A DNA stretch of 64,000 bases from Candidatus Asbonarchaeum danakilense (GTDB lineage Archaea; Nanohalarchaeota; Nanosalinia; Nanosalinales; Nanoanaerosalinaceae), in assembly GCA_034190465.1 (NCBI GenBank), contig JAXINV010000004.1:6802-70801 (forward strand). Reading direction: 5' to 3'. The notes under the pieces were generated by a model. It did no database searches and had not been told where the DNA came from. It was given only the letters and a program-made list of their open reading frames with translations. Each line of letters begins with the position of its first letter. Positions within the stretch are counted from its first letter, which is position 1. The position numbers and the translations under genes were made by a program. This document shows, in pieces, positions 2,492-22,868 of this stretch.

Positions 2492-2929
2492 CTACTGGCT
2501 GGCGGTCTGGGCCGGGCAGAAACTTGTCTGGATGTAGCCCTGGTCGATGCAGTTGTACTCCGAACCGTCGACCGTGACGATGGCATCCTTATAGTTGGTC
2601 CACTTACATCCTGCCTCAGTGGCAGTGTCCTCATATGTGGTGTCGCCAGAAAGCTGGCGGCGGGGATTGGTACTCGTACAGTCGTAGCCATCGTCCGCGT
2701 TGGCGACGTACATCTGACAGTACTCCTGGTTGGCATCGTCGGCAAGGTTGTAACATGCTTCACGGACGGCGGCGGTCTGCTGGGTCTCCCCCTGTGCCTG
2801 ACCGGCCCAGTTGAAGAATGACTGGAGCGTCCCTCCGCTCAGCGTGATGATCGATACGGCGGTTATGAAGAGGATGACACCAACGACAACCATCGTCAAT
2901 GTGAAGCTGATACCTTTCCTGTCAGTCAT
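2492..2929 (-). CDS. Prepilin-like secreted Cys-rich protein (145 aa)
   Basis: The track ORF 2492..3043 overlaps Alba. The internal ATG at 2929 gives MTDRKG|ISFTLTMVVVGVILFITAV, a class III-type signal. AGGTG lies about 10 nt upstream. The mature part has 6 Cys. An alternative start is at 2950. Confidence 0.6.
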   Translation of the reverse strand: MTDRKGISFTLTMVVVGVILFITAVSIITLSGGTLQSFFNWAGQAQGETQQTAAVREACYNLADDANQEYCQMYVANADDGYDCTSTNPRRQLSGDTTYEDTATEAGCKWTNYKDAIVTVDGSEYNCIDQGYIQTSFCPAQTASQ

Positions 2930-3378: not shown

Positions 3379-4692
3379 TCAGCCGGTGCCACACGCCCAT
3401 CCGTTCGCTGCACTGTCTGATTCGACGGCAGCAAGGTTCAACGCCGGGCAGAGCGACTGCATCGCCTGCTTACACATGGCGGGCTTGAATGAACTTGCTT
3501 CACCGCCATCAGCACCGGTCACGCAGCTCTTCCCGATGTAGTTCATACAACGCATCGTCACTGCCGAATTGACCGAGCCGTCCGTGGGGTAGAAGTTGGC
3601 GTTGTACTTACAGTACTGCATCCAGGCCGAACCATCGGCGAACGCTGAACCGCTCGGCAGCGTCCACGAAGGCTGCGAATCGGCCGTCGTCAGGTTCTTC
3701 CACACGAACGTCTTGAACCCGGCATCGTTCGACGGACAGGCGTCAACCTGCGGGGTGTCCGAGACCTCGTTACAACCGTTGATGAGGCCTGACACATCCG
3801 TCGTGAACCCTGTTCCCGATATGGCACACGCCGCGTAATACGATGGAGGGGCATCAGCCCATGACTGACAGAAGCTTCCCTCGACTTTCTGATCTGCGAA
3901 CGCGGCGGAGTCAGAGGCAGAATCACAGAAATCTCCACCCATCGCTTCACACGCATCCTGGGCCACGACACACCGGTTGCCACAGACGGTGCTTCCCTGC
4001 ATCCATTCCTGGGGGACGCCCGTCACCTTGGTGCGGTTGGTCGGAGTGGTCTCGACCTCGCCAGCGTACTCCCCGGACTTGATCTTCACCCAGCCCCGGG
4101 AGATGACGAATGCCGCCTTGCCGCTGTCCGTCGATTCGATCGTGAACGGCGTGTCGGCGTTCAGCACCAGATTGTCTCCTCCAGTTTGACCGCAGCTGTA
4201 CGGCTCCGAGCTCAGTGTATTACTGCCACAGAAATACGACGAAACCTCCACCCAGCTATCGCCGTCCTTTACGAGCGTCTTCCCGTCCATATCTCCGGAC
4301 GTTCCGGCCGGATCGGGACCGACATACTCCCCGATATACGGCGCTGCAGGCTTTGATTCGCCGAGGAACGTCCCTCCGGACACGAGGGAGAACGTTGATG
4401 GCGCACCGTAATGGCCGTCAACCTTGTTCCAGGTCGTATCTATCACATCCGATGTCGGACGTGACGTATCCCCACTCCCATCGCCATTTCCATTTCCATT
4501 TCCATCACCATTTCCATCACCAAGAGCATCGTTGGCCTCATCGGCGGCGTCGCCCAGGTTCTGGTTGCCCTGCTGGCCTGTCTGCTTGAGCTGGTCCTGG
4601 AGCCCTCCAAGTGAGGGGACGATGACCGCCGCCATGACGAGCATGATACCCATCACGACGACCGTCTGGACGCCGACGCCTTTCCGCTTCAT
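3379..4692 (-). CDS. Prepilin-like secreted protein with a GDGNG linker and a Cys-rich ectodomain (437 aa)
   Basis: N-terminus MKRKG|VGVQTVVVMGIMLVMAAVIV, followed by a GDGNGDGNGNGNGDGSGD linker. 16 Cys by manual count. The start overlaps the upstream stop as ATGA. Confidence 0.7.
   Translation of the reverse strand: MKRKGVGVQTVVVMGIMLVMAAVIVPSLGGLQDQLKQTGQQGNQNLGDAADEANDALGDGNGDGNGNGNGDGSGDTSRPTSDVIDTTWNKVDGHYGAPSTFSLVSGGTFLGESKPAAPYIGEYVGPDPAGTSGDMDGKTLVKDGDSWVEVSSYFCGSNTLSSEPYSCGQTGGDNLVLNADTPFTIESTDSGKAAFVISRGWVKIKSGEYAGEVETTPTNRTKVTGVPQEWMQGSTVCGNRCVVAQDACEAMGGDFCDSASDSAAFADQKVEGSFCQSWADAPPSYYAACAISGTGFTTDVSGLINGCNEVSDTPQVDACPSNDAGFKTFVWKNLTTADSQPSWTLPSGSAFADGSAWMQYCKYNANFYPTDGSVNSAVTMRCMNYIGKSCVTGADGGEASSFKPAMCKQAMQSLCPALNLAAVESDSAANGWACGTG
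4468..4521 (-). repeat. Coding low-complexity repeat (GGTGATGGAAAT-type units) encoding GDGNGDGNGNGNGDGSGD
   Basis: The forward strand reads ...ccatttccatttccatttccatcaccatttccatcacc... inside ORF 3379..4692. Confidence 0.7.
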
Positions 4693-4886
4693 CCGCCACC
4701 ACCTCCACCGATCAAGCCACGAAGGTCGCCGAGCGCCCCCATGATACCGGATCCCGCCTTCTCACCGAATCCAAGGAGAGACGGCCGCAACACGGAGACA
4801 AGGAGCGCGACCACGATGAACAGCAGAGCAACACCTATCAGCACTTTAGCCGGTGTCGACATCGCTCCTTTACGCAGCTCAGTCAT
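4689..4886 (-). CDS. Ultra-short prepilin-like protein (65 aa), Gly-rich C-terminus
   Basis: The ATG at 4886 overlaps the upstream stop (ATGA). The N-terminus is MTELRKG|AMSTPAKVLIGVALLFIVVALLVSVL. The C-terminus is GALGDLRGLIGGGGGG. The track start at 4904 is a non-ATG extension. Confidence 0.6.
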   Translation of the reverse strand: MTELRKGAMSTPAKVLIGVALLFIVVALLVSVLRPSLLGFGEKAGSGIMGALGDLRGLIGGGGGG

Positions 4887-5224
4887 TGATACTCTTCCCC
4901 GCAAGTGAACGGCTTCCCGTCCTGTGTCGGCAGGACCTGCTGCTGCACGATCCAGTAGCTACAATCGCGACCACCGTACGACGCGTGCTCCCACCACTTC
5001 TTGTCACCGCTTTCGTACTGGTCGTACTGACAGAGATCCTGTTTCTGCTGGATGCACCGGTTCGCAGCAAGTTCTTTCTGGCTGGAATTGATCTGGCTAC
5101 TGGTTATGCCCCTGAAGATATTCCATTGACCAGTGAATGCGAACACGACCGCGGTCGCGACGACAAGGAGAATAAGGGAGATGACCACGAGGTTCATCGA
5201 CAACGAGATTCCCTTGCGTCGCAT
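4883..5224 (-). CDS. Prepilin-like protein (113 aa), candidate structural pilin
   Basis: N-terminus MRRKG|ISLSMNLVVISLILLVVATAVVFAF. 4 Cys. It has its own TATA-like box and a GAGGA Shine-Dalgarno-like element upstream. Confidence 0.7.
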   Translation of the reverse strand: MRRKGISLSMNLVVISLILLVVATAVVFAFTGQWNIFRGITSSQINSSQKELAANRCIQQKQDLCQYDQYESGDKKWWEHASYGGRDCSYWIVQQQVLPTQDGKPFTCGEEYQ

Positions 5225-5265: not shown

Positions 5266-7878
5266 TCACTCCCGGCAGCGGTTGTCCCGGTCACCGTCCG
5301 CATCCGGCCGCCACTCCCAGCACGGGCTCGGCTCCTTCGGGAACGACAGCTCATCGATTGTCCCGTCCTCGTTGAACGTGACGGTCGATGTCTGCGTGTA
5401 GTTGAACACGAACTTCATATGTTTCTGCCCCTCCCTGGTCGGCACATAGTACCGTTCATCCGTCACCGTGACCTGGAACGTCACCTTGGACGTCAACTTT
5501 TTGATACGCCAGACCTTCCGCCCCGTCTGGTAGGCTTCGTTGTAGTTGACATTTTCATCGCAGCAATAGTCACCGTCGCACTTATCCCCCTCCCCGTTAG
5601 CAGAAGCGGCACGGGTCCGCTCCCTGACAGGGGTGACGTACGAAGAAAGCATCCCGGATCCTGACGTGAACTCGACCAGTGGATACGGGTCCGTCTCCTC
5701 CCGGTCATCAGGCAGAAGCTTATAGTCTCCATCCCCTTTATCCTCTGGGTGCTCGTAGCACGAACCGGAACAGTACAGCTCATCGCTACATTGGGTCGAC
5801 TCCTGCGGGATTTTCTGTGCCAGCCCTGCCTTCGGCGGTGTCAGCCCTATGATGTTGATAGAGTAATCGTCCGGCAGATGGCCGCTCCGCGTCGGGATGC
5901 TCTCCCCGAATCCGCTCGTCTCACATGAGGTCGAGCCGATATCATCCGCATCACATGATACGCTGCCGCAGCTCGTACTCTTCTCCTCACTGCTCGTCTC
6001 AGAGACCGCACACGAACTCACGGACCACGCCTTCCCTCCTTCATCGTCGGGGACCAGCTCTGCGCTGTCGATCTCGTACTCCACGCCCTGGACCTCGATA
6101 TCGACCGAGATATTGCCGTAATGCCGGTCGAACGGCGGGACAAGGACGGATGGGGTGAAGACGTTCTCCTCATACTGCGACAGCTTGCTCTGGATGAGCG
6201 GTGCCACCGCCTCCTCCTGCCGGTTCAGCGCCAGCTCCCAGCTTCCTGTCCCGGGGTAGCTACCGTCGAAGTCACTGCTCGCCCCATTCTTGTTGTATTC
6301 ACAGTTCGATGCATCGCTGGGGCACGTCCCAACATTCTGCTCTTTCTCCAGTGCTATGTAGTTCGACACGTTCGCCACCGAGTCCGCCGTGATGTTCCGC
6401 AGCCCCCAGGACTTGGCCAGCGTCTCGCTCACGTTGTACAGGTAGAAGAAACGGTTCCCCCTGAGGTACTGCGTCCGCTCCGTCGGGATGTATGTCGTCG
6501 TGGTCGCTGTCGATCTCGAGAACTGTATCTTTGTAGGCGAGGAGCTCCTGGCCGTATAGTTCAGGCCTTGGACCAGGTTCGAGACGATCTTGCCTGTCTG
6601 CTCATCGATGATACGGAACGCCTCAAGCTGGGCCGACATCGGATTGCCCGTCCCCGTTTCCGCCAGCATCGTGACCGAGATCACGCCCCCCTTGTTGAGC
6701 GAGATCCTGCGGGAGATATTGTCCCTGTACACCGACGGCCAGTTGTGGTACGTGCAGCCGTCATCATCGCCACAGTCTGTCGCTGGGTCTCGTGACTGTT
6801 CAGTATGCGTATAGATGGTTCCATCGTTTTCCTTCACCTTGAACCTCACATGACTCCCTCTATTAGCATCCTCCTCCGTGTGTGTCACCTCCAGACGGTA
6901 GTCGAAGTAGATCGTGTATTCCCCACTGTGCGATGCCTTGAACAACTTCACGTCCCGCATCTGGACCTTCCTCGCCCGCGCGGTTGCCGTCTGTCCGGCT
7001 GACGGCGCTGACCCTGAAAGATCGATAATATGTGTCTCGGGCTGAAGTGGCTCGATCTGGATCGAGTTCAGCTGGACCTGCTGCCTGCTCCACGTACTCT
7101 GTGCCTCCAAGACCATCTTCAGACGGTTTCCCTTCCTCAGCTCCATCGTAAACGTTTCCTCGTTGCTGCCACCACCAGAATCCGCGGAAGCCTGGTCCTG
7201 GAACACGATATCACCGTCAGAGGTGTAAAACATGATTGATGCGCTGCTCCCACCGTCACTGTATCCGTCTCCGTCCTGATACTGCAAGTCAAAGGTGTAA
7301 TCGACCGTCACACGGTAACGCGGTGGGGCGCCCATCCCGCGGAAGCCGGCGTGATATTCCCCCTCGTAGAGCACCCATTTCGTCCTGTTCGTCTCCGGGC
7401 CAGTCTCAACGGGCTTTTGAAGCCCCTTATACGGTCTTTGCACACCGTACCGGTCATGGAAGTTGTAGGAAAAATCAGGGACCGTGATATCGCCGTTCTC
7501 CTGGACGCTGCCGCTGCCCAGATAGATCTCCATGAACGACTCTGCCGCCTGTTCTTTCGCCGCCTGCGCCACAGCGTCCTCGGACGGGATTGACTCGCCG
7601 GCGACCCAGTTCTCATCCGACCATTTCCCTCCTTCCTTTGCCAGCTGGTACGTGACGCTGTGCATGTTGTAACGGATTGCCTGACCCGTGTAATCCTCGG
7701 AGATATAATCTGCAAAGGCTTTCGCTTTGGTCGCTGTCCGCGTCTCCTCGATACCGGACTGGACCGTCGCCTGCACGCCGCCAGGGAGACTCATCATATA
7801 CGCAATGCCGCCGATACCTGCCAGCATCGCCATGATGAACAACGGTGCTGCCGTGCTTGCTTTCCGCAGCTTCATCAT
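5266..7878 (-). CDS. Giant prepilin-like surface protein (about 870 aa) with an internal duplicated beta-rich module and a Cys-rich C-terminal half
   Basis: The ATG at 7878 overlaps the stop of the upstream gene (ATGA); the track start at 7884 is GTG. The N-terminus is MMKLRKA|STAAPLFIMAMLAGIGGIAYMM. Two similar modules are visible (YRVTVDYTFDLQYQ...VQLNSIQIEP and YTIYFDYRLEVTH...AQLEAFRIID). 16 Cys by manual count. Confidence 0.7.
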   Translation of the reverse strand: MMKLRKASTAAPLFIMAMLAGIGGIAYMMSLPGGVQATVQSGIEETRTATKAKAFADYISEDYTGQAIRYNMHSVTYQLAKEGGKWSDENWVAGESIPSEDAVAQAAKEQAAESFMEIYLGSGSVQENGDITVPDFSYNFHDRYGVQRPYKGLQKPVETGPETNRTKWVLYEGEYHAGFRGMGAPPRYRVTVDYTFDLQYQDGDGYSDGGSSASIMFYTSDGDIVFQDQASADSGGGSNEETFTMELRKGNRLKMVLEAQSTWSRQQVQLNSIQIEPLQPETHIIDLSGSAPSAGQTATARARKVQMRDVKLFKASHSGEYTIYFDYRLEVTHTEEDANRGSHVRFKVKENDGTIYTHTEQSRDPATDCGDDDGCTYHNWPSVYRDNISRRISLNKGGVISVTMLAETGTGNPMSAQLEAFRIIDEQTGKIVSNLVQGLNYTARSSSPTKIQFSRSTATTTTYIPTERTQYLRGNRFFYLYNVSETLAKSWGLRNITADSVANVSNYIALEKEQNVGTCPSDASNCEYNKNGASSDFDGSYPGTGSWELALNRQEEAVAPLIQSKLSQYEENVFTPSVLVPPFDRHYGNISVDIEVQGVEYEIDSAELVPDDEGGKAWSVSSCAVSETSSEEKSTSCGSVSCDADDIGSTSCETSGFGESIPTRSGHLPDDYSINIIGLTPPKAGLAQKIPQESTQCSDELYCSGSCYEHPEDKGDGDYKLLPDDREETDPYPLVEFTSGSGMLSSYVTPVRERTRAASANGEGDKCDGDYCCDENVNYNEAYQTGRKVWRIKKLTSKVTFQVTVTDERYYVPTREGQKHMKFVFNYTQTSTVTFNEDGTIDELSFPKEPSPCWEWRPDADGDRDNRCRE

Positions 7879-9182
7879 CGCCACCTCATCCGCAGATCGT
7901 TGCCCTCGACGATCATGTGCAGCTGGGCGGTTGTCCGCCCTGCCATCGGGATCTTTGTATAGTACTCAGCAGGACCTGTGTCATAGGTTTGGTCCCCGGA
8001 CTGAAGATAGATGACCTCCTCTCCCCGGTACGAGACATTGAGCTGGTACGATCGCGTCCCTATCAGGTTACGTACCGCACGTTTGAACCGGATCTGGACA
8101 CTATTGAAGCCACAGGTATCCGGCGGCGCGGTTATCGTGGCATCATGGTACGCGAACTCACTCAGATCGTATGTATGCAGGAAGAACTCGAACTCACCGC
8201 CTGACTGCAGGAAGAGACGGTGGGCGTCCTCCTCGCCCGCCTGTCCGATGATATGGCCTGAACTGTCGAACGTGTACTGGACACCGTAATCGGTCGTCAC
8301 GGTTTCCGTCTTCGGTTTGACCCACCCCATCATCGTGAGCCCGTTCCAGTCCGTATATCCGCCATCAGCAATCTTCACGACATCGTCGTTCCCATCGAAG
8401 TGGAGGCAGGAACCAGATTTACAGGCAGAACCTGAACGCCACTCAGGGTCGTGGGACTCGTCAGTGTTGTCGATACCACGGACAGCATGATCCGGTGAAT
8501 CGAACACCCCGTCACTACCGGACTCATCCGTCACCTGCTGCCCGCTTCCACTGTCCATCGACCAGTAGCCGACCGGGGCTGGATCGATACTCCGGTCATT
8601 GATGAGATCCGTTATCTGGCCGGGCTCGAGCTCCTTGTTGTACACTCTGAACTCGTCGAGGAACCCTTTAAACGAGGAGAAAACCGAGGGATCGTCGCCG
8701 GCATCGTCAGGCGGTTGTATCTCTCCGCCGATCGTCATCGTCGATCCGGTTGCTCCTGTCAGCCGGCCTGAGGTCTGGCCGATGGCGGCGAGCGTGCCGT
8801 CGACGTAGACTCGCATCCGTCCCGACTCCCTGCTGTACGTCACCGCCACATGGTACCACTTGTTCTCCTCCACAGTCTCATCAGCGGTTACTTCACAGTT
8901 GATGGCGTTCTGGAACCGTGCCTGGGTCAGTCCCTGGTTACGCATCACGTTGAGAATGTAATGCGGCAGGTTGGATGTGTCCCGGGCATCTGCCTCCTTC
9001 GCGATCTCAACCTGGAACCGGGCATTCTGCTGGCGTTGATTCGACCCGCCCAAGAAGTTCTGGATTCCCTGGGACGAGGCGTGGGCGAAAAGGATGAAGC
9101 TCGCGAAAGCCACGAAGAACACCACGGCCATCATCGCAACCCAGAGCGTCATCGATGCCTCAAGTCCTTTCCCCTCCGTCAT
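7875..9182 (-). CDS. Prepilin-like protein with two LamG/concanavalin A-like lectin modules (435 aa)
   Basis: N-terminus MTEGKG|LEASMTLWVAMMAVVFFVAFASFILF. NKWYHVAVTYSRESGRMRVYVDG...FKGFLDEFRVYNKELEPGQITDL is typical of Laminin_G_3. A second module starts at CLHFDGNDDVVKI...MMGWVKP. Confidence 0.7.
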   Translation of the reverse strand: MTEGKGLEASMTLWVAMMAVVFFVAFASFILFAHASSQGIQNFLGGSNQRQQNARFQVEIAKEADARDTSNLPHYILNVMRNQGLTQARFQNAINCEVTADETVEENKWYHVAVTYSRESGRMRVYVDGTLAAIGQTSGRLTGATGSTMTIGGEIQPPDDAGDDPSVFSSFKGFLDEFRVYNKELEPGQITDLINDRSIDPAPVGYWSMDSGSGQQVTDESGSDGVFDSPDHAVRGIDNTDESHDPEWRSGSACKSGSCLHFDGNDDVVKIADGGYTDWNGLTMMGWVKPKTETVTTDYGVQYTFDSSGHIIGQAGEEDAHRLFLQSGGEFEFFLHTYDLSEFAYHDATITAPPDTCGFNSVQIRFKRAVRNLIGTRSYQLNVSYRGEEVIYLQSGDQTYDTGPAEYYTKIPMAGRTTAQLHMIVEGNDLRMRWR

Positions 9183-9658
9183 GGCCTCACCCCGATACGG
9201 AGCCGTGCAGGCGTCAGCTCTCCCGTTGCACTGTTGTTTATCAGGACATGGTACTGCTGGCCGAACGTGGCGTCATACCCGGGAGCACCGGTCAGCACCG
9301 TGCCCCGGTCGCTGTCATAGTAGACCGCCCAGGTGTACTGCGGGCCGTCGTAATCGCTCCCCTGCTTGTACTGGAAGCTGAGGAACGTCACCCCTATCGG
9401 ATCCAGGCAGCTGAAGTCTCCCGAAATGACCGACGAATTGTAGAACACACCGCGCGTACTGGTCGCGCACGGCATATCAAGCACCTGCTCGCCGAGGATG
9501 TTCTTCATGAAATTGTCACCGATCGCCTGCTGCCCTTCACCCAGCACCAGATCGCCGTAGTTCGCGGCGATGATGAACAGCACGAAGACGCCGACAAAGA
9601 TGAACGGGACCAGGATGATGGCTGGGCTCACACCTTTACGCTCCTCTTCCTCACTCAA
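9179..9658 (-). CDS. Prepilin-like protein (159 aa)
   Basis: N-terminus MSEEEERKG|VSPAIILVPFIFVGVFVLFIIA. The start codon is TTG at 9658, and no ATG precedes the hydrophobic helix. 2 Cys. The stop overlaps the next start as ATGA. Confidence 0.55.
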   Translation of the reverse strand: MSEEEERKGVSPAIILVPFIFVGVFVLFIIAANYGDLVLGEGQQAIGDNFMKNILGEQVLDMPCATSTRGVFYNSSVISGDFSCLDPIGVTFLSFQYKQGSDYDGPQYTWAVYYDSDRGTVLTGAPGYDATFGQQYHVLINNSATGELTPARLRIGVRP

Positions 9659-10547
9659 AGAAGGACACCTCGCCGGCAGAGATCTGCAGGGTTTTCATAT
9701 CCTGTATAACAGGGTCCATATCAACCTCGTGCCCGCCGAACGCCACATAGCCCGATATATACTTTGTCGCCGGATCGAACCGGCCGGCGTAGGAGAACGC
9801 AGACCGTTCAAAGACACGGGTATGGTTCAGGCGGCCGGAGCACGGCATCTCCTGCGTGTACTGTCGGCCCTCCGACGAGTTCAACGTAAAGTACGCAAAC
9901 TTGTCCTGCGGGCAGCGATAGGTGACGGATATCATGCAGCCGAACTCCTGGCCCCTGAAATTGAACATCGGACAGGCCACCCGATTCACCTGGCCGAACG
10001 AATCCTCCGGTGACGAGCACTGGTTATAGTATCGAGGGTAGAACCCCTGTCGTGTGAACGCTCCGTTGTTACAGAAGTAGCCGAACTGGGGTGCTCCCCC
10101 GGCCATCCGCGAACTGCACGAATTGGAAAAACAAGATATCGGAGAACAAGAACCCTTCGAGATTGTAAATGACAGACCTTGCTTCTCTACACAAAGCGTC
10201 TTGCCGCTTACATCTGCCGCATCATAGTTGTAGCTAGGTGGCAGCTGCCGTGAACGTTTGTTCTCAAGGAATTCCGCGTCCAACACGAGTTCGGGGCTGT
10301 CCCCGCCGGTTATAAGTTCCACACGGTCATAGCTGTTCTTCAGTGTCACGCTCATCGTCGCCGTTCCCTGACCTTGCAGGGTGACGAATGGACTGAACAA
10401 CCGTATCGCGTCGAGCCGTGCATAGCCGCGTTTCACACCGATACCCAGTGCCTCGGACAGTGGGCCGCCCCCGGCCAACGTCGCCGCTACAAGGACCGTG
10501 ATCACGAACACCCTGATCAGGAACCGCGAGGTGAGCCCTTTCCGCAT
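9651..10547 (-). CDS. Prepilin-like Cys-rich protein (298 aa)
   Basis: N-terminus MRKG|LTSRFLIRVFVITVLVAATLAGG. 10 Cys by manual count, clustered in the middle of the protein. Confidence 0.65.
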   Translation of the reverse strand: MRKGLTSRFLIRVFVITVLVAATLAGGGPLSEALGIGVKRGYARLDAIRLFSPFVTLQGQGTATMSVTLKNSYDRVELITGGDSPELVLDAEFLENKRSRQLPPSYNYDAADVSGKTLCVEKQGLSFTISKGSCSPISCFSNSCSSRMAGGAPQFGYFCNNGAFTRQGFYPRYYNQCSSPEDSFGQVNRVACPMFNFRGQEFGCMISVTYRCPQDKFAYFTLNSSEGRQYTQEMPCSGRLNHTRVFERSAFSYAGRFDPATKYISGYVAFGGHEVDMDPVIQDMKTLQISAGEVSFFE

Positions 10548-11038: not shown

Positions 11039-11233
11039 TCACCCTCCGGTCGCGCCCCGGATGGCGCCCGTCGCATTCTGTCCCGAGGCGTTCATGATAT
11101 CCTTGATAATACTACCCGCCCGTTCTGGAATATCTGTCCCGATACTGATGACGATGAGCGCGATGATGCCAAGTAAAAGGATAAAGACGATCAACTTCGG
11201 TCCCAGCGTGAACTGTCCACGTCGATCCGTCAT
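11039..11233 (-). CDS. Ultra-short prepilin-like protein (64 aa)
   Basis: N-terminus MTDRRG|QFTLGPKLIVFILLLGIIALIVISIG, with Gln at the putative +1 position as in EppA-type substrates. The C-terminus is Gly-rich. The start overlaps the upstream stop (ATGA). Confidence 0.6.
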   Translation of the reverse strand: MTDRRGQFTLGPKLIVFILLLGIIALIVISIGTDIPERAGSIIKDIMNASGQNATGAIRGATGG

Positions 11234-11397
11234 CCGAGCTCACCTATCGCTTTATCGACCAGTGTATTGAGGGGGTCAGCCGTCCCAAAAATCATCTCTT
11301 TGAGTACCGTCGTTGAGGCAAGGACAACAATCAATACCGCCAGTATCACAACAACGATCTTCACCGTTGAACTGAACCCTTTCCGGCGGCGGGACAT
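11230..11397 (-). CDS. Ultra-short prepilin-like protein (55 aa), not in the supplied ORF track
   Basis: Manual translation gives MSRRRKG|FSSTVKIVVVILAVLIVVLASTTVLKEMIFGTADPLNTLVDKAIGELG. The TGA stop overlaps the ATG of the next gene. A TATA-like GGTATTATACC lies about 30 nt upstream. Confidence 0.55.
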   Translation of the reverse strand: MSRRRKGFSSTVKIVVVILAVLIVVLASTTVLKEMIFGTADPLNTLVDKAIGELG

Positions 11398-11440
11398 CTT
11401 CAGAACAAGCTTTACCCGTGACGGTATAATACCTTTTTGG

Positions 11441-12143: not shown

Positions 12144-15100
12144 TCAGTGGTTCGGCCAGGAACTCTGATGGCCGTACCACTGGATGGCCGCTTCGCCGAG
12201 CGCACCCGAGGCACCACCGGCAGCAGCCACGACCGTGACAGCAAGATACGTTCCTCCGGTCAGGACTGACGCGATGACCTCGGCAGCGATGCCGCCGAGC
12301 ATCAACCCTGCCGTGATGAACTCGTTCCGCTGGAGGTCCGCGTTCCAGCCGTAGACCGCCATACCATTCTTGGTCTGCCAGTCGTTATTGTTACCTACGC
12401 CGTCCACACCCACGACAAGGGAGCTGTAACTGATCCTCTTCCGCGTGTTGCCGAAGTCGTAGGCGTCCACAATACTGTCCCAAAGGCCTGCAAGGAGGGT
12501 ATGCTGCTCGAAGTACGTCGTTCCCGTCGCACCCGCCGTCACACGCGGACGGGAGATAGTAGTATCCCACTTCAGCCCTTTCCACGTCTCTGTCGCACAT
12601 GACCACGCTGCGTATGAGACATCGATATCGATGTTGAAGTCACCTCCCGTACCGATCGTAAAGTCCGTATGCGGTATTGTGAACTGGAACGGCGTGATAT
12701 CCCCACCTGCGTGCGCTTCCAAGTCCTTCGTTTTACACTTCCCGTTCCAGAACCAGATCTGATTGTACCACCCGTTGGGCGGTGTGACCCACTCCCAGTC
12801 CTCATCAGGGTCTTTCTGGATGGCGACCTCCCTGTTCGGCGCCGCCTGCGGACCCACCATGTACTGGACGTTGTTGAAACCTGGACCTCTACCTGCCGGC
12901 CATCCGGCATTGACCTGATACTCGCCGTGATCCACACCGTGCTGGCTGGGCACCGAACGCACGAACGGATACTGTGTGTAGTACAGTTCGCCGTCACACA
13001 TATTGGACTTGTAAAACGTCCCCGACCAGTTCTTCGGCACGCTCGGCTCGTTCGAGCCGGAATCACGGTCCAGTTTCACGTTCTGGATGGCATCGGTAGG
13101 AAGTACAGCACTAGTGATACCTGAAAGGATATCCGCTCCAACATCGTCCCCCGTCGGATCCAGCCAGTTGAAAACCCCGCGAAGCCCTTCTTTGATGGCG
13201 CCGATCGCATCACCAAATCCTTCTGGAAGGAAATCGCACGTACTCGGTGTGAGAAGATATGGCCCCCTGTATCTTTCCTGATCCTCGGCATTCGCCAGTT
13301 CGCCCGAATTGATTTTTCCACCGTCCGCCGCCATCACCGCGCTCGATACATAGGTCGTCATCTGCTTCATCCGCACCGTCAGGTGCGGTGTCCCGGATGC
13401 ACCGGCTATCCTGTCCGTGTACATTGGCGAGGCCATGTAGAACCTGCCGTCAGGATTGCTACCGCCACGATCCAGCCCAATGAAGAAGAAATTGGCAAGC
13501 GGGTGGAGCCGGAACTGGAGCGGCGGCATGAACGACCGGGCAAGATACAGCGAGTTGACATTACCTGGTTTGCTCATATACCCTGTCGACGTGATGAAGT
13601 CTGCCGCGTGACCGACAAGCGTCATAGCAGCACATGCAGCTGTCCCGCCGGAACTCGCGTACGATCCAGCCGTCCTGACGTGACTGACGCCCGCGGCGCT
13701 ACACAGGCTTTTGATAGCTCCATCGACAGCTCCGCTGTATGCTGCGCATCGGCCGAGACTTTCCCACAGATCGCTCTGCGCGGAATCCATGTTATTCATG
13801 ATCGCCTGAATCGCCTGCGAACGTACCATCTTGCTGTTGCAGGCAGCCGCGATAGCCCCCTTCTTCATGAAGTTCGCCGCGTTGTCAACCATGCCGCCAC
13901 CCCTCGATGCCAGGCCACGGATTGATTTCGTGGCCTTTTGAATTATCTTCTGAGCGGCCTCCCGCCGCGGAGCCCCTGAGAGCTCCATGAGCGTGCTGGC
14001 ATAGTCCGAAGCCCGGAACGACATCCGCAGCGAGTGCCGCAACGAGTTCGCTGGGTCCATAGCGCTTGCATAGCTGCTGGACTTCGGCAACCGCTCCATC
14101 AAGTCATCAACCGTCCTGGCGCCGTTCATCAGGCGGTTGGCCGTAATCGTCGACATGTCCTCGATCATCTGCTGGGCGGCCGCCTCGTCACCGCCGTGGG
14201 CCGCAACAATATTGGCGTAGACGCTGTCACCGGCATCATCCGTACTCTGCAATGCCTCTTCCCAGTTCTCCGCGACCATCGTCCGCATCTGCGTGTAATC
14301 GAGCGTCCGCACCGTTCCATCCGGCCGGACGATCCGGTAAGTGTATTCCCCACTCTCATCCAGCTGGTGCAGGGTTACATGCGCCAGATCTTCATCCATC
14401 TGCCTGAAGAAGTCATCAAGGACGTTCTGGGCTGCATCATCCGAAATCGAGTCAATACCGACATAGACAGAAAGCTTCGAAACGGCCTCACGCATGAAGG
14501 CCTCACCCATCGCCTTGGCGGACGCTGCGACCCCGTAGGCCGCCCGTCCCGGATACGTCGCTCCACGTGCGAACAGACGAGCCCACCGGGCAGGTCTCGA
14601 CGAACCAACGTAATCGATCATTGCACGGGCCGCCCATTCGGCCGCCTCCTTCGCCGCCGTAGCGCGACTGGTCGCACCAAGAAGCTCATCGACCGAACCC
14701 GCTCCATATCTTGCCACCCGGCCTATCATAGAGCCCGTCTTGAACATGTACTTGCTCACCCCACTGGCAAGCCGCGAACCGATTTTGCCAGCAGGAGCGG
14801 GGATGGCACCCATGACACCTGCAAACGCGATTGCCATCATGTTCCAGCCCGACGTCCGCGTCAGCCAGTTGCCCTCGACCGAGGGTTTCAGCTTCTGGTA
14901 GTACAGGACATATTTCGGCATACCGTGCCCCTTCAAGAAGTTGATGATCGTCTGCGGCACCGAGCCCCCGTCAAGTTCCCAGGGCCCCGTGAATGGCACC
15001 TGCTGTGGGAGCGCGAACCCGTAGACACGGCAGCTGCCGCCGCCGGGGTTGTTCTTCATCGCGTCGCACTTGACCTTGACGCCCTTCCCGAACTTGACAA

Positions 15101-15494
15101 CGCCTTTACCTCCCGGGGCCGCCTCCTTGCAGGAGTGATCGATGCGCGAACCGAACCCCTGCTCAGAGAACGGCGTGTTCCACTGTTCAAGATAGGCGCT
15201 CTGATCAACACTGTCCGCCGGCGCATTGATCATAGCAGAACAGGAGATAGCGAACGTCAGTGCCTTCGTCGACTCGACAGCGACCTGCTGGTACGTTGCT
15301 CCGAACTGGAACAGTTGGGCCAGCGTCCTGATGGTCGGTGTCAGGTTGCCGCCGGCCAGCGTGAAGATGAACCCGCCGACGATCAGCACACCGAGAAGAC
15401 GGACGGTCGTCTCTGTCACGACCGTGAACCCCTTCCGCGGGGCCTGTTGTGCCTCGTGAACGAAACGTGCTACCTTCCGTCTGAGGTCGACCAT
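12144..15494 (-). CDS. Giant prepilin-like / membrane-associated protein (about 1116 aa)
   Basis: The ATG at 15494 is preceded by AAGGTAGGAG; the track start at 15512 is GTG. The N-terminus is MVDLRRKVARFVHEAQQAPRKG|FTVVTETTVRLLGVLIVGGFIFTLAGG. There are extra hydrophobic segments (WNMMAIAFAGVMGAIPAPAG) and a C-terminal one (ITAGLMLGGIAAEVIASVLTGGTYLAVTVVAAAGG). 12 Cys by manual count. Confidence 0.7.
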   Translation of the reverse strand: MVDLRRKVARFVHEAQQAPRKGFTVVTETTVRLLGVLIVGGFIFTLAGGNLTPTIRTLAQLFQFGATYQQVAVESTKALTFAISCSAMINAPADSVDQSAYLEQWNTPFSEQGFGSRIDHSCKEAAPGGKGVVKFGKGVKVKCDAMKNNPGGGSCRVYGFALPQQVPFTGPWELDGGSVPQTIINFLKGHGMPKYVLYYQKLKPSVEGNWLTRTSGWNMMAIAFAGVMGAIPAPAGKIGSRLASGVSKYMFKTGSMIGRVARYGAGSVDELLGATSRATAAKEAAEWAARAMIDYVGSSRPARWARLFARGATYPGRAAYGVAASAKAMGEAFMREAVSKLSVYVGIDSISDDAAQNVLDDFFRQMDEDLAHVTLHQLDESGEYTYRIVRPDGTVRTLDYTQMRTMVAENWEEALQSTDDAGDSVYANIVAAHGGDEAAAQQMIEDMSTITANRLMNGARTVDDLMERLPKSSSYASAMDPANSLRHSLRMSFRASDYASTLMELSGAPRREAAQKIIQKATKSIRGLASRGGGMVDNAANFMKKGAIAAACNSKMVRSQAIQAIMNNMDSAQSDLWESLGRCAAYSGAVDGAIKSLCSAAGVSHVRTAGSYASSGGTAACAAMTLVGHAADFITSTGYMSKPGNVNSLYLARSFMPPLQFRLHPLANFFFIGLDRGGSNPDGRFYMASPMYTDRIAGASGTPHLTVRMKQMTTYVSSAVMAADGGKINSGELANAEDQERYRGPYLLTPSTCDFLPEGFGDAIGAIKEGLRGVFNWLDPTGDDVGADILSGITSAVLPTDAIQNVKLDRDSGSNEPSVPKNWSGTFYKSNMCDGELYYTQYPFVRSVPSQHGVDHGEYQVNAGWPAGRGPGFNNVQYMVGPQAAPNREVAIQKDPDEDWEWVTPPNGWYNQIWFWNGKCKTKDLEAHAGGDITPFQFTIPHTDFTIGTGGDFNIDIDVSYAAWSCATETWKGLKWDTTISRPRVTAGATGTTYFEQHTLLAGLWDSIVDAYDFGNTRKRISYSSLVVGVDGVGNNNDWQTKNGMAVYGWNADLQRNEFITAGLMLGGIAAEVIASVLTGGTYLAVTVVAAAGGASGALGEAAIQWYGHQSSWPNH

Positions 15495-15535
15495 TACTCC
15501 TACCTTTTCCACGATGGCTTAAAAATACTGGGGGG

Positions 15536-15724
15536 TCAGCCGAACGGACACCTGATCGTGTGGCCCATCCCGGACAGGATGCCGCGGATAGGGCCAAGGA
15601 CGCTCATGAACAGGTCACACGCCTCGGCGCTGTCGGCCGCGTTGAAGAACGCGACACCAATTATCGTACCGAATATAAGTGCTGCAGCAACCATAAGAAT
15701 CATCATGAACGTCCGTGAATTCAT
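15536..15724 (-). CDS. Ultra-short hydrophobic N-terminus protein (62 aa), possible prepilin-like
   Basis: N-terminus MNSRT|FMMILMVAAALIFGTIIGVAFF. 2 Cys. The start overlaps the upstream stop (ATGA). Confidence 0.5.
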   Translation of the reverse strand: MNSRTFMMILMVAAALIFGTIIGVAFFNAADSAEACDLFMSVLGPIRGILSGMGHTIRCPFG

Positions 15725-15864
15725 CCCTCAGTCATGACCTCCAGTATAACCTGGACCGCTTGATCCGTCCAGCCCAGTATGAGCGCAGCCATGAGGATGA
15801 AGAAGACGACAGCAAGGACGGCGATGACCACCCGGAGCCAGTGATGCTGTCCCTTCCTCCCCAT
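15721..15864 (-). CDS. Ultra-short prepilin-like protein (47 aa), not in the supplied ORF track
   Basis: Manual translation gives MGRKG|QHHWLRVVIAVLAVVFFILMAALILGWTDQAVQVILEVMTEG. The TGA stop overlaps the ATG of the next gene. A TTTAATATT box (15903-15911) lies upstream. Confidence 0.5.
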   Translation of the reverse strand: MGRKGQHHWLRVVIAVLAVVFFILMAALILGWTDQAVQVILEVMTEG

Positions 15865-15918
15865 AACGCCCACGCGGTTTACGACATACTGGGACGGTGC
15901 CGAATATTAAACTGTCCC

Positions 15919-18057
15919 CTACGACACACCGATGCCGGAGATAATCCCGCCGAAGATCGCCGTGATGATGAACACAGTCACCGTGTACACGATCGTCATC
16001 ACCAGCAGCATCTGCCCGATCGCGATGTTCCGCCGTGCCGGGTTGTTGCCGACCTCAAGCCGGACATACAGCGTGCCGATCAGCAGCGCCAGCTCGATGA
16101 GGTAGATGCCGACGATCGCCTGCAGGACGCCCGGCGGGATCGACGATTTGATGTTGAACAGCGTCAGGACGCCCGATGCACCGCCTGTCAGGCCACCCCC
16201 TACGCCACCGGCGGCTCCACCGCCTCCACCTGCACCGGCTGTCGCGTTCCCGATCGACTGGTTCTTGACGGTCTGCCCGATCGCGTAGAACGCCTGGGAG
16301 ATGACAGACCCCATGCCGACCGCGATGCCGGAGATGACCGGGGCAACGATGTAGCCGAGGAACTTGATGGACGAGACCGTCTCATCCAGCACCTCCTCCA
16401 GCTTCTCCTGCGTGTCACGGATGTTCTTCAGGTAGTTGGAGATGCTGAGGATCGACCGCGACGTGACCTCAGGGCCCTTCTTGATCGACTCAGAGATGAT
16501 CTCCATGATCGTGCTGATCAGCTGCGACGGGTACGTCTGGATCGCGCCCGACCGCTGATCGAACACCGCCTGCTTGAAGTCCATGCCCTGCTCCTTGATA
16601 TTGCGGGATATAAGACGGAACAAGTCAGCGATGTTCAGCGACTGCCGCTTCTGCGCCGCCGTGTCGATCGCACGCTCGATCGGCATGCCCTTGTCAAGCT
16701 GGTTTCCAAGCTCGAACAGGATCTCCGGGAACTCCTCCTCCATCTCCCGGATCGTGTTCTGTCGGGAGACTGTGCTCTTATAGCCGAGATACAGGTGCAA
16801 CCCCGCTGGCACGGAGATCCCGAGCACCAACATCATCTCACGGAGCAGCGTCACATTGCTCACCGATATCGGGATCGTGCCCCCACCGAAGAACGCGTGG
16901 AAATAGTGAGGCACCGGCCACGACATCATCAGGAGGAACAGGGGAACCGTGAACACATACAGCGGGACATAATAGGTCGTGCCGAACACACCGACCGGGA
17001 ACTTCCCGCCATGCCCGAAGTCGGCCTGGCCCGCTGCAGATGAGAACGACACCGGGCGGCCGACAAGCAGGTTGCGCATGATCGCGAACACGACCAGCGG
17101 GATGATGATGTCATACAGGAAGAACAGGTAGAACCCCATCCCTGAGCCGCCCATGAACGACGCAATCATCGGGAACAGGATGATGCCCAGCACAGGGAGC
17201 AGGATACCGACACCGTGCAGCACCATCACCGGCAGCCGCATCTGGCGGGCAAACTCGTTCATCTGGCTCTTCGTGTAGTCGAGCAGGTTGTTGACGGATT
17301 CGTTCAGGATCTCAAGGCGCTTATCGTTGCTTGGAGCCGTCTTCGCCGATTCCAGCAGGCTGAGCGCCTCGATGAATCCGCGGTTGTACGGTTTCCACCG
17401 GTCCATGTAGTCCCGCAGCCCCTCGTCGATCGTGTTGTACACACGCATATCCAGTTTCCACAAGATCTCGTTGAAGTCGCGGGACACCGGGCCCTGCAGT
17501 CGCTGCGCCGAAAAGGCAACAGCTCCTTCCAGGTTCGGTGTGGAGCGCATGTACACGACCATGTAGAGTATCGACAGAATCAGATCCTCCGATGACTTGA
17601 CCACCTTCTGCTGCGCCCGCAGGTTCGGATACTTCAGGATGTAGTAGAACCCGGCGAACGGGATGATAACGAAGAACAACTTCAACAGCATCGGGAACGA
17701 CGTCAGCATCATCACAAAGCTGACCGGGAACAGCATCAGCATCAGCATCGTCGCCGACGGCGCGACATCCTCCGCCTCGATGTCCCAGTCCAGCAGGCGG
17801 ATCGCCTGCCGGTGGTCCTCCTCCATGTCCTCAAACGTGTACGAAAAGAACGACGTCCTATTCACGAACCGTTCATACCATGACTTCTCTCCCGCTCTTA
17901 CCTCCTCAGACTTGTACTGTTGGTATTCGCGGGACTCAACGTTGAAATCCTCATCCTGCTGCCCTCCATCCATGTACCGCTCGATGTCGCCCTCTGATGG
18001 ACCACGTTCCAGCTCACTGATCCACTCCTTCAGGTTCTCGTCATCATCTCCTGGCAT
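15919..18057 (-). CDS. Type IV pilus / archaellum-type platform membrane protein (PilC/FlaJ/TadC-like, two T2SSF-type helical domains)
   Basis: 712 aa and polytopic. Two cytoplasmic helical domains (…SSEDLILSILYMVVYMRSTPNLEGAVAFSAQRL… and …FPEILFELGNQLDKGMPIERAIDTAA…) are each followed by TM clusters. It lies immediately downstream of the secretion ATPase. Confidence 0.8.
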   Translation of the reverse strand: MPGDDDENLKEWISELERGPSEGDIERYMDGGQQDEDFNVESREYQQYKSEEVRAGEKSWYERFVNRTSFFSYTFEDMEEDHRQAIRLLDWDIEAEDVAPSATMLMLMLFPVSFVMMLTSFPMLLKLFFVIIPFAGFYYILKYPNLRAQQKVVKSSEDLILSILYMVVYMRSTPNLEGAVAFSAQRLQGPVSRDFNEILWKLDMRVYNTIDEGLRDYMDRWKPYNRGFIEALSLLESAKTAPSNDKRLEILNESVNNLLDYTKSQMNEFARQMRLPVMVLHGVGILLPVLGIILFPMIASFMGGSGMGFYLFFLYDIIIPLVVFAIMRNLLVGRPVSFSSAAGQADFGHGGKFPVGVFGTTYYVPLYVFTVPLFLLMMSWPVPHYFHAFFGGGTIPISVSNVTLLREMMLVLGISVPAGLHLYLGYKSTVSRQNTIREMEEEFPEILFELGNQLDKGMPIERAIDTAAQKRQSLNIADLFRLISRNIKEQGMDFKQAVFDQRSGAIQTYPSQLISTIMEIISESIKKGPEVTSRSILSISNYLKNIRDTQEKLEEVLDETVSSIKFLGYIVAPVISGIAVGMGSVISQAFYAIGQTVKNQSIGNATAGAGGGGGAAGGVGGGLTGGASGVLTLFNIKSSIPPGVLQAIVGIYLIELALLIGTLYVRLEVGNNPARRNIAIGQMLLVMTIVYTVTVFIITAIFGGIISGIGVS

Positions 18058-18066
18058 CGTGACCGC

Positions 18067-20536: not shown

Positions 20537-20920
20537 ATGGCTGCTCAGGGTGGACAGGACGATGTCATCAGCCGACTGAACAACAACGCCCGTCGGATAC
20601 GGCAGCTGGAAGAAACCACGCGGAATCTCCAGGAACAGGTCAAGAACATCGAAGACCGGCTGAACAACCAGAAGAAGCGCGTCAGCCAGAACAAGACCGA
20701 TATCAAGGAGAAGACCGAAGAACTCAACGAAAAGGTCGAGAACCTGAACGCAGAGATCAAAAAACTGCAGCGCAAAACCCGGAAGCTCGTCACGCGTCGC
20801 GAGTTCAGCGAGGTCGAGGAATACATCGACCTCATGAACCCTGTCGAGAGTGATTTCGTCACAGAGAGCGATGTCGAAGAGATGATCGAGCAGAAACTCC
20901 AGGAACGGAACACGACGTGA
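20537..20920 (+). CDS. Coiled-coil protein (127 aa), function unknown
   Basis: Heptad-rich sequence (RRIRQLEETTRNLQEQVKNIEDRLNNQKKRV...). It is divergent from the pilus ATPase gene. Confidence 0.65.
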   Translation: MAAQGGQDDVISRLNNNARRIRQLEETTRNLQEQVKNIEDRLNNQKKRVSQNKTDIKEKTEELNEKVENLNAEIKKLQRKTRKLVTRREFSEVEEYIDLMNPVESDFVTESDVEEMIEQKLQERNTT

Positions 20921-21819: not shown

Positions 21820-22314
21820 TCAGTCGCCGCTCGTCATGTACTTCATGATGTACACGATGCCTACTACCATGACGACTGTCATGGCAGCTTCCCCGGTCAA
21901 CCACTTGGCGACCTCGACACCGGTGTAGGAGAGCATGTAGATGATGATCAGTGCCAGGATACCAGCAGCGACAAGCGCCATATTGCGCTGCCGGTTCTCA
22001 CCGCCCTCCAGCATCTCCGTGATATCTACACCGAGGATACCGAGGATGAGGACGTAGCCCAGCAGCACGAACAGCCCCAACGTCACGAGGCTGAAGAACC
22101 AGCTGAACACTGCTGTACCGCCGAAGACCTGGATGATCCCGGCAACAGACATGAACGCTGTGACAAGTGCGATCGCAGCGTCAACGGTTTCATCGTCGAA
22201 CAGTTCAATCTTCTGCAGCAGACCGTAGACGATCGCCATGATGAAGACGAACATCAGGAACGAAGGAAACCCCACGCTCCAGAGGTTACTGATCAGTTGC
22301 TCAAATATTGCCAT
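21820..22314 (-). CDS. Small polytopic membrane protein, paralog 1 of 3 (164 aa)
   Basis: Has 4-5 hydrophobic helices. FPSFLMFVFIMAIVYGLLQKIELF aligns with the equivalent segments of its two neighbours. Confidence 0.65.
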   Translation of the reverse strand: MAIFEQLISNLWSVGFPSFLMFVFIMAIVYGLLQKIELFDDETVDAAIALVTAFMSVAGIIQVFGGTAVFSWFFSLVTLGLFVLLGYVLILGILGVDITEMLEGGENRQRNMALVAAGILALIIIYMLSYTGVEVAKWLTGEAAMTVVMVVGIVYIMKYMTSGD

Positions 22315-22325
22315 TCTTAATCACC

Positions 22326-22817: not shown

Positions 22818-22854
22818 GATGTATTACCCCTGTGTACCCACAATTCGTCGGCCA

Positions 22855-22868
22855 ATTTATATAACTTG
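22855..22868 (-). promoter_or_regulatory. Putative promoter (CAAGTTATATAAAT on the gene strand)
   Basis: AT-rich box in the 22818-22888 intergenic region, upstream of the ATG at 22817. Confidence 0.45.

Follow-up and report, generated by a model that had tools for sequence, protein, structure and literature searches.

Two overlapping micro-genes and their conservation

The 64-kb window analyzed here, a stretch of 64,000 nucleotides (nt) from the nanohaloarchaeon Candidatus Asbonarchaeum danakilense (contig JAXINV010000004.1, positions 6,802 to 70,801), carries a long minus-strand operon, from about 20355 to about 2492, that contains genes for a type IV pilus-like machine. Two very short, overlapping genes within it, encoding proteins of 55 and 64 amino acids (aa), are the subject of this analysis, together with a promoter-like element ahead of them. 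In the following, a slash marks the predicted cleavage site after a leader, and residues are numbered from that site.

11230-11397, minus strand: 55-aa micro-gene, MSRRRKG/FSSTVK followed by a hydrophobic helix and a short amphipathic helix; candidate helix-only pilin-like subunit, without annotation in the metagenome-assembled genome (MAG)
11039-11233, minus strand: 64-aa micro-gene, MTDRRG/QFTLGPK followed by a hydrophobic helix and then a tail that is polar, rich in Gly and contains NAS/NAT sequons
11425-11432, minus strand: TATA-like box GTATTATA within the 43-nt intergenic gap, 27 nt ahead of the 55-aa ATG; putative internal promoter

The 55-aa protein begins with MSRRRKGFSSTVK and reads MSRRRKGFSSTVKIVVVILAVLIVVLASTTVLKEMIFGTADPLNTLVDKAIGELG in full, and the 64-aa protein begins with MTDRRGQFTLGPK and reads MTDRRGQFTLGPKLIVFILLLGIIALIVISIGTDIPERAGSIIKDIMNASGQNATGAIRGATGG. 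Both open reading frames (ORFs) lie on the minus strand where the original prediction, an earlier reading of this DNA, had placed them, including the overlap of the TGA of the first with the ATG of the second: positions 11230-11233 read tcat on the plus strand and ATGA on the coding strand. At NCBI the 64-aa protein is SV186_01285 (MDY6770570.1, from a 'Candidatus Nanohaloarchaea archaeon' MAG), and three further micro-proteins of the operon, of 62, 47 and 65 aa, are SV186_01300, SV186_01305 and SV186_01250. The 55-aa sequence is absent from the protein collection, and the locus-tag series of the window MAG has no spare tag for it, so the earlier remark that one of the two genes was missing from the ORF track was correct. 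An orthologue of the 55-aa protein is annotated in a related MAG (SVU32_00205).

The coding status of both genes was assessed against the corresponding locus of a related MAG (L004, contig JAXINU010000012.1), whose gene order matches that of the window, with a 228-aa-like fragment followed by genes of 55, 67, 161 and 295 aa. Differences are given by codon position, and dN/dS is the ratio of nonsynonymous to synonymous substitution rates.

55-aa gene: DNA identity 79%; differences at codon positions 1/2/3 of 3/3/28 (34 in total); dN/dS 0.035
64-aa gene: DNA identity 75%; differences 12/6/30 (48 in total); dN/dS 0.15
162-aa neighbour: DNA identity 74%; differences 37/26/64; dN/dS 0.21
298-aa neighbour: DNA identity 76%; differences 47/30/134; dN/dS 0.11

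Third positions hold 28 of the 34 and 30 of the 48 differences in the two micro-genes, which is the synonymous bias that had been named beforehand as a test, and protein identity is 93% for the 55-aa and 78% for the 64-aa protein. Among the genes measured, the 55-aa gene is under the strongest constraint (0.035 against 0.11-0.21). Both the 55-aa and the 64-aa ORF are genuine genes, conserved and kept under purifying selection. Their very short length, the lack of an NCBI annotation for one of them and the many antisense ORFs of this GC-rich region might be taken to indicate chance ORFs; this explanation has next to no likelihood and is rejected because the differences relative to L004 are biased toward synonymous sites, a substitution pattern that refutes it, and because protein identity stays at 93% and 78% where DNA identity is 79% and 75% and positional orthologues occur in distant relatives.

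Conservation in related genomes, another check proposed in advance, was also found. Six loci containing relatives of the operon's platform gene were fetched and compared; the handle L011 denotes Ca. Nanohalobium constans (CP040089.1). A 55-like gene occupies the same operon position, between genes of about 225 and about 160 aa, in four other nanohaloarchaeal loci (L004, L009, L010 and L012), and in three of these four (L004, L010 and L012) a second micro-gene follows directly. The 55-like proteins have 53-65 aa and begin with MAAARSGRKGFSVSVKILLF in L009, MSRLGQMSTPVKLII in L010 and MAEKKGVTGNQAVIVV in L012. Behind the 55-like gene, a homologue of the 64-aa gene is present in L004 and in L012 (97 aa, 4-nt overlap). 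Other micro-genes also occupy fixed slots in the six related loci: the platform gene is followed by one for a 45-48-aa RKG protein that ends in ...GW and then by one for a protein of about 64 aa with two conserved Cys, and near the operon end a protein of about 108 aa is followed by one of about 65 aa.

Two uncalled micro-ORFs were observed in Ca. Nanohalobium constans (CP040089.1, about 776.6-776.9 kb), in a 377-nt operon gap that is 'empty' in the gene calls. One, at 14582-14746 of L011, encodes 54 aa from a TTG start (MQTKKGFNRIPFVVAGFIL...) and looks 55-like (KKG/F); the other, at 14795-14923, encodes 42 aa and overlaps the next gene, of 71 aa, by 4 nt.

Homologues of the 64-aa protein are P0002 (78% identity) and P0004 (90 aa, E 1.5e-8). 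P0004 belongs to another nanohaloarchaeon (L006-L008), where its gene directly follows that of a 94-aa protein homologous to the 55-aa protein (BLASTP E 6e-4). In L008 this homologous pair (94 and 90 aa; 9638-10273) has long, acidic, Gly/Ser-rich tails and lies away from pilus genes. Because it does not adjoin them, the 55-like and 64-like genes form a unit outside the operon as well. About 3 kb from the L008 pair lies a giant LamG-domain gene (SPEARE-like, >2443 aa; 13128-20273), and a gene for a DUF87 (HerA-like) ATPase is nearby. Word-based homologue searches returned one relative per micro-protein, and a metagenome scan with the 55-aa alignment gave no match. The same scan with the platform alignment yielded one 27%-identical DPANN-like locus (L005), which lacks recognizable micro-genes and is uninformative.

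Leader, helix and shared N-terminus

The micro-proteins have a common build, consisting of a short basic leader that ends in [KR]-x-Gly, a hydrophobic helix of about 20 residues and a polar or amphipathic tail of 20-30 residues. The earlier description, a prepilin-type leader with one hydrophobic helix and a tail of 20-25 residues, agrees with both proteins of the pair, each having a charged leader that ends in Gly, a single hydrophobic helix and a short polar tail. Behind the leaders MSRRRKG/, MTDRRG/, MGRKG/ and MTELRKG/, the hydrophobic stretch spans 19-25 residues. If cut after the Gly, the 55-aa and 64-aa proteins would have mature lengths of 48 and 58 aa, and the micro-proteins overall 42-58 aa, in agreement with the expected 40-58 residues provided that cleavage does follow the Gly. 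The 65-, 47- and 62-aa proteins had been named as further members; all three ORFs are present, and the 62-aa protein of the window lacks the [KR]G leader. Of the two sites cited earlier for a Gln after the Gly, RRG/Q is found in the 64-aa protein and RKG/Q belongs to the 47-aa protein, the 55-aa protein having RKG/F.

A scan of the 64-kb window for short leaders ending in [RK]-x-G and followed by a strongly hydrophobic 17-mer returned 13 ORFs, 10 of them in a 13-kb stretch of the operon and the other three being polytopic membrane proteins. Applied to six related loci of 16-22 kb, the same scan placed 55 of 56 matches downstream of the platform gene and on its strand. In total, about 13 operon proteins carry a [KR]-x-G-type leader and a hydrophobic helix. 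No member of the 55-, 64- and 65-aa families departs from [KR]-x-G, which takes the form R-x-G in the alignment of the latter two, and a Lys at +6 or +7 after the Gly is common (GFSSTVK, GQFTLGPK, GAMSTPAK, GELSTPVK). The residues that follow the Gly are FSSTVK in the 55-aa, QFTLGP in the 64-aa, QHHWLR in the 47-aa and AMSTPA in the 65-aa protein. Among orthologues, position +1 varies between Q and E (64-aa family), F, Q, V and M (55-aa family) or Q, A, E and G (47-aa family). Homologues contain NAT/NGT sequons and acidic or Gly/Ser-rich tails, features that give a hint of the membrane topology.

Alignment of the 55-aa family with the 64/65-aa families by hhalign gave a probability of 90% (E 1.7e-6) over 26 N-terminal residues, and BLASTP matched the 55-aa protein to the 113-aa operon protein over the N-terminal 24 aa (E 9e-5). 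No significant BLASTP match was obtained between the 64-aa and 65-aa proteins (E 19); their paralogy is suggested by position, the shared [R]-x-G...P-x-K motif and the family alignment. Judged by these comparisons, the N-termini of the micro-proteins are homologous to each other and resemble those of larger operon proteins. A shared N-terminal helix combined with divergent C-termini is the pattern expected for pilins of one system.

AlphaFold2 models, built from two-sequence alignments only, place helices at 8-37 and 42-54 of the 55-aa protein, separated by a GTAD turn (predicted local distance difference test score, pLDDT, 73.8), and one continuous helix at 10-62 of the 64-aa protein (pLDDT 74.5). 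The helix begins immediately after the Gly in the first model and four residues after it in the second. As modelled, neither micro-protein has a globular domain and both are helix-only. In sequence searches of the PDB, the 55-aa profile matched nothing but a designed helical repeat protein, and the 64-aa profile had no match.

Small size and a single hydrophobic helix would also suit precursors of small peptides that are secreted or act on membranes (signal, bacteriocin or holin-like) and have no connection with the pilus machinery, and the L008 pair does lie outside the operon, near the giant SPEARE-like LamG gene. The chance that this explanation applies is very slim. The hydrophobic segment, with 19-25 residues, exceeds the length that a Sec signal peptide would have, an AxA-type cleavage site is lacking, the position in the pilus operon is fixed across at least five loci, and the N-terminal homology reaches larger operon proteins; on these grounds, a reading as Sec signal peptides or secreted peptides was rejected.

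Operon context and expression signals

The operon genes encode, in order, proteins of 762, 712, 47, 62, 1122, 228, 55, 64, 162, 298, 159, 435, 872, 113, 65, 437 and about 145 aa. Apart from the central pair, the features of the operon and of its upstream flank are the following.

18067-20355, minus strand: type IV pilus/archaellum-type assembly ATPase, 762 aa (Pfam T2SSE 7e-12; NCBIfam FlaI 4e-36, TadA-family 1e-31)
15919-18057, minus strand: single polytopic platform protein, 712 aa (TadC/FlaJ-like, T2SSF family), with 8 hydrophobic segments
15721-15864, minus strand: 47-aa micro-gene (MGRKG/QHHW...GW; 50 aa if extended to 15873), immediately behind the platform gene; orthologues in L003, L009 and L013
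15536-15724, minus strand: 62-aa micro-gene, overlapping the 47-aa gene by ATGA; the product has two conserved Cys and a CPF motif at the C-terminus; orthologues in L003, L009, L010 and L012
12144-15512, minus strand: 1122-aa protein, class III-like PRKG/FTVV; orthologues of 1080-1249 aa
11441-12127, minus strand: 228-aa membrane-anchored protein, directly upstream of the 55-aa gene and a positional marker; orthologues of 222-228 aa in L009, L010 and L012
10550-11038, minus strand: 162-aa protein (MARNG/MADYMVIVII...), directly after the 64-aa gene; class III-like N-terminus
9651-10547, minus strand: 298-aa protein (MRKG/LTSRF...), class III-like N-terminus
9179-9658, minus strand: 159-aa protein (..EERKG/VSPAIILV..), class III-like N-terminus
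7875-9182, minus strand: 435-aa protein (MTEGKG/LEAS...), class III-like leader and a Laminin_G_3 domain (Pfam 8e-22); putative adhesin-type pilin-like protein
5266-7884, minus strand: 872-aa protein, N-terminus LRKA/STAAPLFIM
4883-5224, minus strand: 113-aa protein (MRRKG/ISLSMNLVV..), N-terminus similar to that of the 55-aa protein; TATA-like TTATTTATTTTA upstream
4689-4886, minus strand: 65-aa micro-gene (MTELRKG/AMSTPAK... with a GGGGGG tail; 71 aa if extended to 4904), overlapping both neighbouring genes by ATGA; orthologues in L009 (64 aa) and L013 (66 aa)
3379-4692, minus strand: 437-aa protein (MKRKG/VGVQTVVV..), class III-like N-terminus
2492-2929, minus strand: protein of about 145 aa (MTDRKG/ISFTLTMVVV..), last class III-like gene of the operon
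20537-20920 and 20927-21769, plus strand: two divergent coiled-coil proteins of 127 and 280 aa, with only weak coiled-coil family matches

The ATPase matches Archaeoglobus GspE (afGspE, 1e-25), FlaI (4e-20) and CpaF (5e-19) in the PDB. The platform protein of the window itself falls below the Pfam threshold, and its alignment found no meaningful match in the PDB; its identity is assigned because many of its relatives, at 32-48% identity, carry PF00482 (T2SSF). There are 71 such relatives, nearly all from Nanohaloarchaea where a source is named, including Ca. Nanohalobium constans. One platform gene directly follows the ATPase gene in the window and in all related loci, and neither a second platform gene nor a TadZ/FlaH-like gene was recognized in any of them. 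The coiled-coil pair adjoins the ATPase gene throughout, with the same arrangement in L009-L013. These two proteins are probably the sigma-1-like 'CCP' proteins that Hamm et al. 2024 tie to host interaction.

Upstream of the coiled-coil genes, at 21820-23641 on the minus strand, are three polytopic membrane proteins (164, 163 and 250 aa) without a Pfam match, and genes of similar size stand at this place in L009-L013. They contain no GxGD motif and are not recognizable prepilin peptidases. Additional observations concern individual genes. The pilus ATPase gene contains an intein (Intein_splicing and LAGLIDADG) in L003 (117-2534), L005 (4405-8166) and L014 (332-4114), giving proteins of 1253-1260 aa where complete; the 762-aa ATPase of the window has none. 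Members of the 62-aa family (..CDLF...IRCPFG) share two Cys spaced by about 25 residues and, at the C-terminus, a C-P-[FW] motif, features that suggest a disulfide or a metal site in an exposed tail, and some orthologues possess the [KR]-x-G leader that the window member lacks. In the 1122-aa protein, which also has a hydrophobic C-terminal segment, the class III-like motif (..APRKG/FTVV) appears only after about 27 residues; translation may truly begin at a Met further downstream, because the distance from a TATA-like TATTTTTAA to the listed GTG start is only 13 nt. Orthologues of the protein of about 145 aa occur in L012 and L014 (MERRG/ISFTLT and MSRKG/ISFTLT). Outside the operon, at 29538-31472 on the plus strand, a 644-aa protein that contains CarboxypepD_reg repeats and begins with MSRG/TASKLFVLTALLFL is a possible further class III-type or Sec substrate.

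The ATGA overlap of the central pair recurs in the pairs 47+62 and 113+65, and the only three operon gaps of more than 40 nt each stand ahead of a micro-gene pair. At the position of the TATA-like box, L004 keeps AAAATGTATTATA in a spacer that has otherwise diverged. Boxes at -23 to -35 read ATTATAAATA in L009, ATATATAAAT in L010 and TATTAAA in L012. An AT-rich octamer occupies -23 to -35 of the 55-like gene in five of six loci, compared with a background of 5-7% per 21-nt span, as such octamers occur at <1% of positions in these sequences of 56-60% GC. A TATA-like feature is also found upstream of the 113-like gene. Taken together, these elements suggest promoters inside the operon whose transcripts would have very short leaders, as would be anticipated for subunits made in large amounts.

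The abundance signals bear on whether the pair would supply only minor or priming pilins, the bulk of the fibre being another class III protein of the operon (e.g. that of 113, 162 or 298 aa) or a pilin encoded elsewhere (PilA/FlaF, at another DPANN locus). About 13 class III-like proteins in the operon could fill that role, and in Methanococcus maripaludis a small major pilin coexists with three small pilin-like proteins, only one of them essential (PMC3875500); PilA and FlaF sit in a different locus according to Hamm et al. (PMC11291902). The dN/dS of 0.035 of the 55-aa gene, against 0.11-0.21, and the conserved promoter-like box are what an abundant subunit would be expected to show. A purely minor role is considered highly unlikely, and it overlaps with the reading favored below in that the micro-proteins are pilin-like substrates in both.

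Candidate function and comparison with known pilins

On this evidence it appears fairly probable that the 55-aa and 64-aa genes encode helix-only pilin-like subunits of the type IV pilus-like operon, a reading that is well supported because of the operon context. The two genes would be transcribed from an internal promoter, to which the TATA-like box some 27 nt ahead of the 55-aa ATG would belong, and their translation would be coupled through the ATGA overlap. The products would insert into the membrane with the N-terminus inside and the C-terminus outside, and a prepilin peptidase encoded elsewhere in the genome would remove the leader after the Gly. The ATPase and platform protein could then extract them from the membrane into a thin, all-helical, Tad-like fibre or a short pseudopilus, with the hydrophobic halves in the core and the polar tails, including the N-glycosylation sequons of the 64-aa protein, presumably at the surface. 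The larger class III-type operon proteins, including the one with the LamG domain, may serve as minor, tip or adhesin subunits for contact with a haloarchaeal host.

Several observations weigh against this assignment. Neither the five micro-proteins of the window nor any of 24 family members and operon N-termini matched Flp_Fap (PF04964), Class_III_signal (DUF361, PF04021) or Pilin_N (PF07790) at E<=10, so the proposed comparison with Flp/Fap and DUF361-type pilins by hidden Markov model (HMM) gave no match. Pfam and NCBIfam scans of the micro-proteins at the same cutoff returned only spurious transmembrane-type matches, and one of the 24 members had a sub-threshold match to Arch_flagellin (PF01917, E 0.059). 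No Peptidase_A24 was found in the 64-kb window, by a scan of ten proteins that are polytopic or lie nearby, or in the precomputed Pfam lists for up to 10 kb around the six related loci. The families are narrow, since an exhaustive profile search with the 64-aa pair across 1.84 billion proteins added a single cluster, P0004. The partner gene is also variable: L009 has no 64-like gene after its 55-like gene, and L010 has in this slot an 80-aa gene (4-nt overlap) that is not evidently homologous. Foldseek found no match in the PDB for the 55-aa monomer model, as is expected because the model is so short. Finally, the conserved Lys at +6/+7 is unusual for the N-terminus of a mature pilin and fits an uncleaved, positive-inside membrane anchor equally well.

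This last point bears on an alternative in which the micro-proteins remain uncleaved single-pass membrane proteins (N-in, C-out) that are accessory to the platform, for example stabilizing or gating the ATPase/platform complex, and are not filament subunits. A basic stretch and the conserved Lys flank a 19-residue hydrophobic core, in keeping with the positive-inside rule; in several loci the 47-aa gene adjoins that of the platform protein or overlaps it, suggesting a stoichiometric complex; and the lack of a nearby prepilin peptidase and of pilin HMM matches points the same way. Conversely, the invariant Gly of [KR]-x-G is common to about ten larger, secreted-looking operon proteins, the hallmark of a common peptidase site, the pair has its own putative TATA-like promoter, which suggests high demand, and in the tails there are glycosylation sequons and acidic extensions of low complexity, as is typical where halophilic proteins are exposed. 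An accessory role is judged rather unlikely and is kept as a substantial alternative because the conserved Lys before the hydrophobic core fits an anchor as well as a pilin.

Nanohaloarchaeota, like other DPANN archaea, live in attachment to host cells, a contact for which conserved type IV pilus-like loci are leading candidates. As pilin-like proteins, the micro-proteins would provide concrete candidate filament subunits for a conserved DPANN pilus-like locus without assigned pilins. Automatic annotation misses some of them, namely the 55-aa gene here and the two micro-ORFs in the gene calls of Ca. Nanohalobium constans. The combination of [KR]-x-G, a Lys at +6/+7 and a hydrophobic helix with a fixed operon position offers an aid in searching for more members, and two co-cultures exist in which the candidates can be tested directly. 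Nanohaloarchaeota pilins have been reported as unannotated, 'possibly due to small size' (PMC9563170). In the supplement of Hamm 2019, FlaI, FlaJ and pilin-like proteins were detected in the proteome of Ca. Nha. antarcticus, and the micro-proteins are not resolved there.

'CCP + CpaF + TadC' pilus-like loci are conserved in cluster-2 DPANN, and filament proteins (FlaF, PilA) are assigned only to locus 1, according to Hamm et al. 2024 (PMC11291902). The window locus, judged by its gene content, would correspond to their 'locus 2', with two divergent coiled-coil genes beside a CpaF-like ATPase and a TadC-like platform. This gene order is shared by Ca. Nanohalobium constans and other Nanohaloarchaea. 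As a difference, the accessible part of that article does not describe the class III-like genes that follow downstream, nor the micro-genes. A more far-reaching proposal is that the pair is the missing 'locus 2' filament, a two-component all-helical fibre mediating attachment to a haloarchaeal host, built by a single-platform machine outside the Epd/Tad clade from helix-only pilins that arose or were retained independently; this is decidedly unlikely as a whole.

The broad features of class III pilins are present, namely a basic leader with a Gly before the helix, an operon with a VirB11/FlaI-family ATPase and a T2SSF platform, and a homologous N-terminal helix. The closest archaeal comparison is with the Epd pilins of M. 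maripaludis, whose major pilin MMP1685 (EpdE) has a precursor of 74 aa and a mature form of 62 aa, and whose MMP0528, MMP0903 and MMP1283 (67-76 aa) were explicitly compared with Flp pilins in 2013 (PMC3875500). The original prediction had called the mature sizes Flp-like and atypical of archaeal pilins; the first part stands, and the second does not, given these Flp-sized archaeal proteins, nor is the locus evolutionarily new for archaea on account of its small subunits. Like the window proteins, Epd pilins are archaeal, have a class III-type leader ending in Gly and consist of a Flp-sized helix with a short tail; several small paralogues occur per genome, with an N-glycosylation sequon in the tail and Gln at +1 in some members (PMC3875500). 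They differ in carrying DUF361/Class_III_signal, in a conserved +1 Gln and +5 Glu and in being cut by EppA, whereas the window proteins have no HMM match and no fixed +1 residue, and the +5 Glu of EppA substrates is absent in every member. The Gln after the Gly had been taken as the mark of an EppA-type substrate, a claim that finds no support in the variable +1 position, the absent +5 Glu and the lack of an EppA-type peptidase in the window or near the six loci. The predicted mature sizes of 42-58 aa are also somewhat smaller, and the machinery is distinct, the Epd/Tad clade being defined by Denise et al. through short pilins and two split platform genes (PMC6668835) and the window having one 712-aa platform.

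Bacterial Tad pilins have 40-60 residues, contain alpha-1 only, expose a polar C-terminal part at the fibre surface and pack like archaeal type IV pili (PMC10710030). With Flp/Tad pilins such as PilA of Caulobacter crescentus (45 aa mature, PDB 8U1K), the window proteins share this size, at 48 and 58 aa, the helix-only models, a hydrophobic N-terminal half and a polar C-terminal patch (PMC10710030), as well as an assembly ATPase of the CpaF/FlaI lineage. Unlike them, the micro-proteins and their orthologues lack the Flp motif (G/XXXXEY) with its Glu5 and Tyr6, as well as a Flp_Fap match, have a basic residue (Lys) at +6/+7 and carry leaders of 5-7 residues in place of the long Flp leader. Tad-type machinery was likewise not recognized, with a single platform gene instead of TadB+TadC, no TadZ-type ATPase and, as expected in an archaeon, no secretin. 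Because of the missing HMM matches and motifs and the fused platform, the micro-proteins are not members of the Flp or Epd families; they resemble these pilins in size and probably in architecture from outside those families. They are new and lineage-restricted proteins of a type already known from Methanococcus and bacterial Tad pili, and since Flp-sized archaeal pilins and an archaeal ancestry of Tad pili were already established, the result alone leaves the picture of pilin evolution unchanged.

A final parallel is the split pilin of Geobacter sulfurreducens, in which PilA-N (65 aa), a very short pilin with alpha-1 only, is followed immediately by a second gene, PilA-C, without whose product the subunit is incomplete (PMC10710030). 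The PilA-C product forms a soluble globular domain; the 64-aa partner in the window, by contrast, itself consists of a leader and a helix, and PilA-N has the T4a hallmarks Phe1, Pro22 and Glu5, which are absent in the window proteins.

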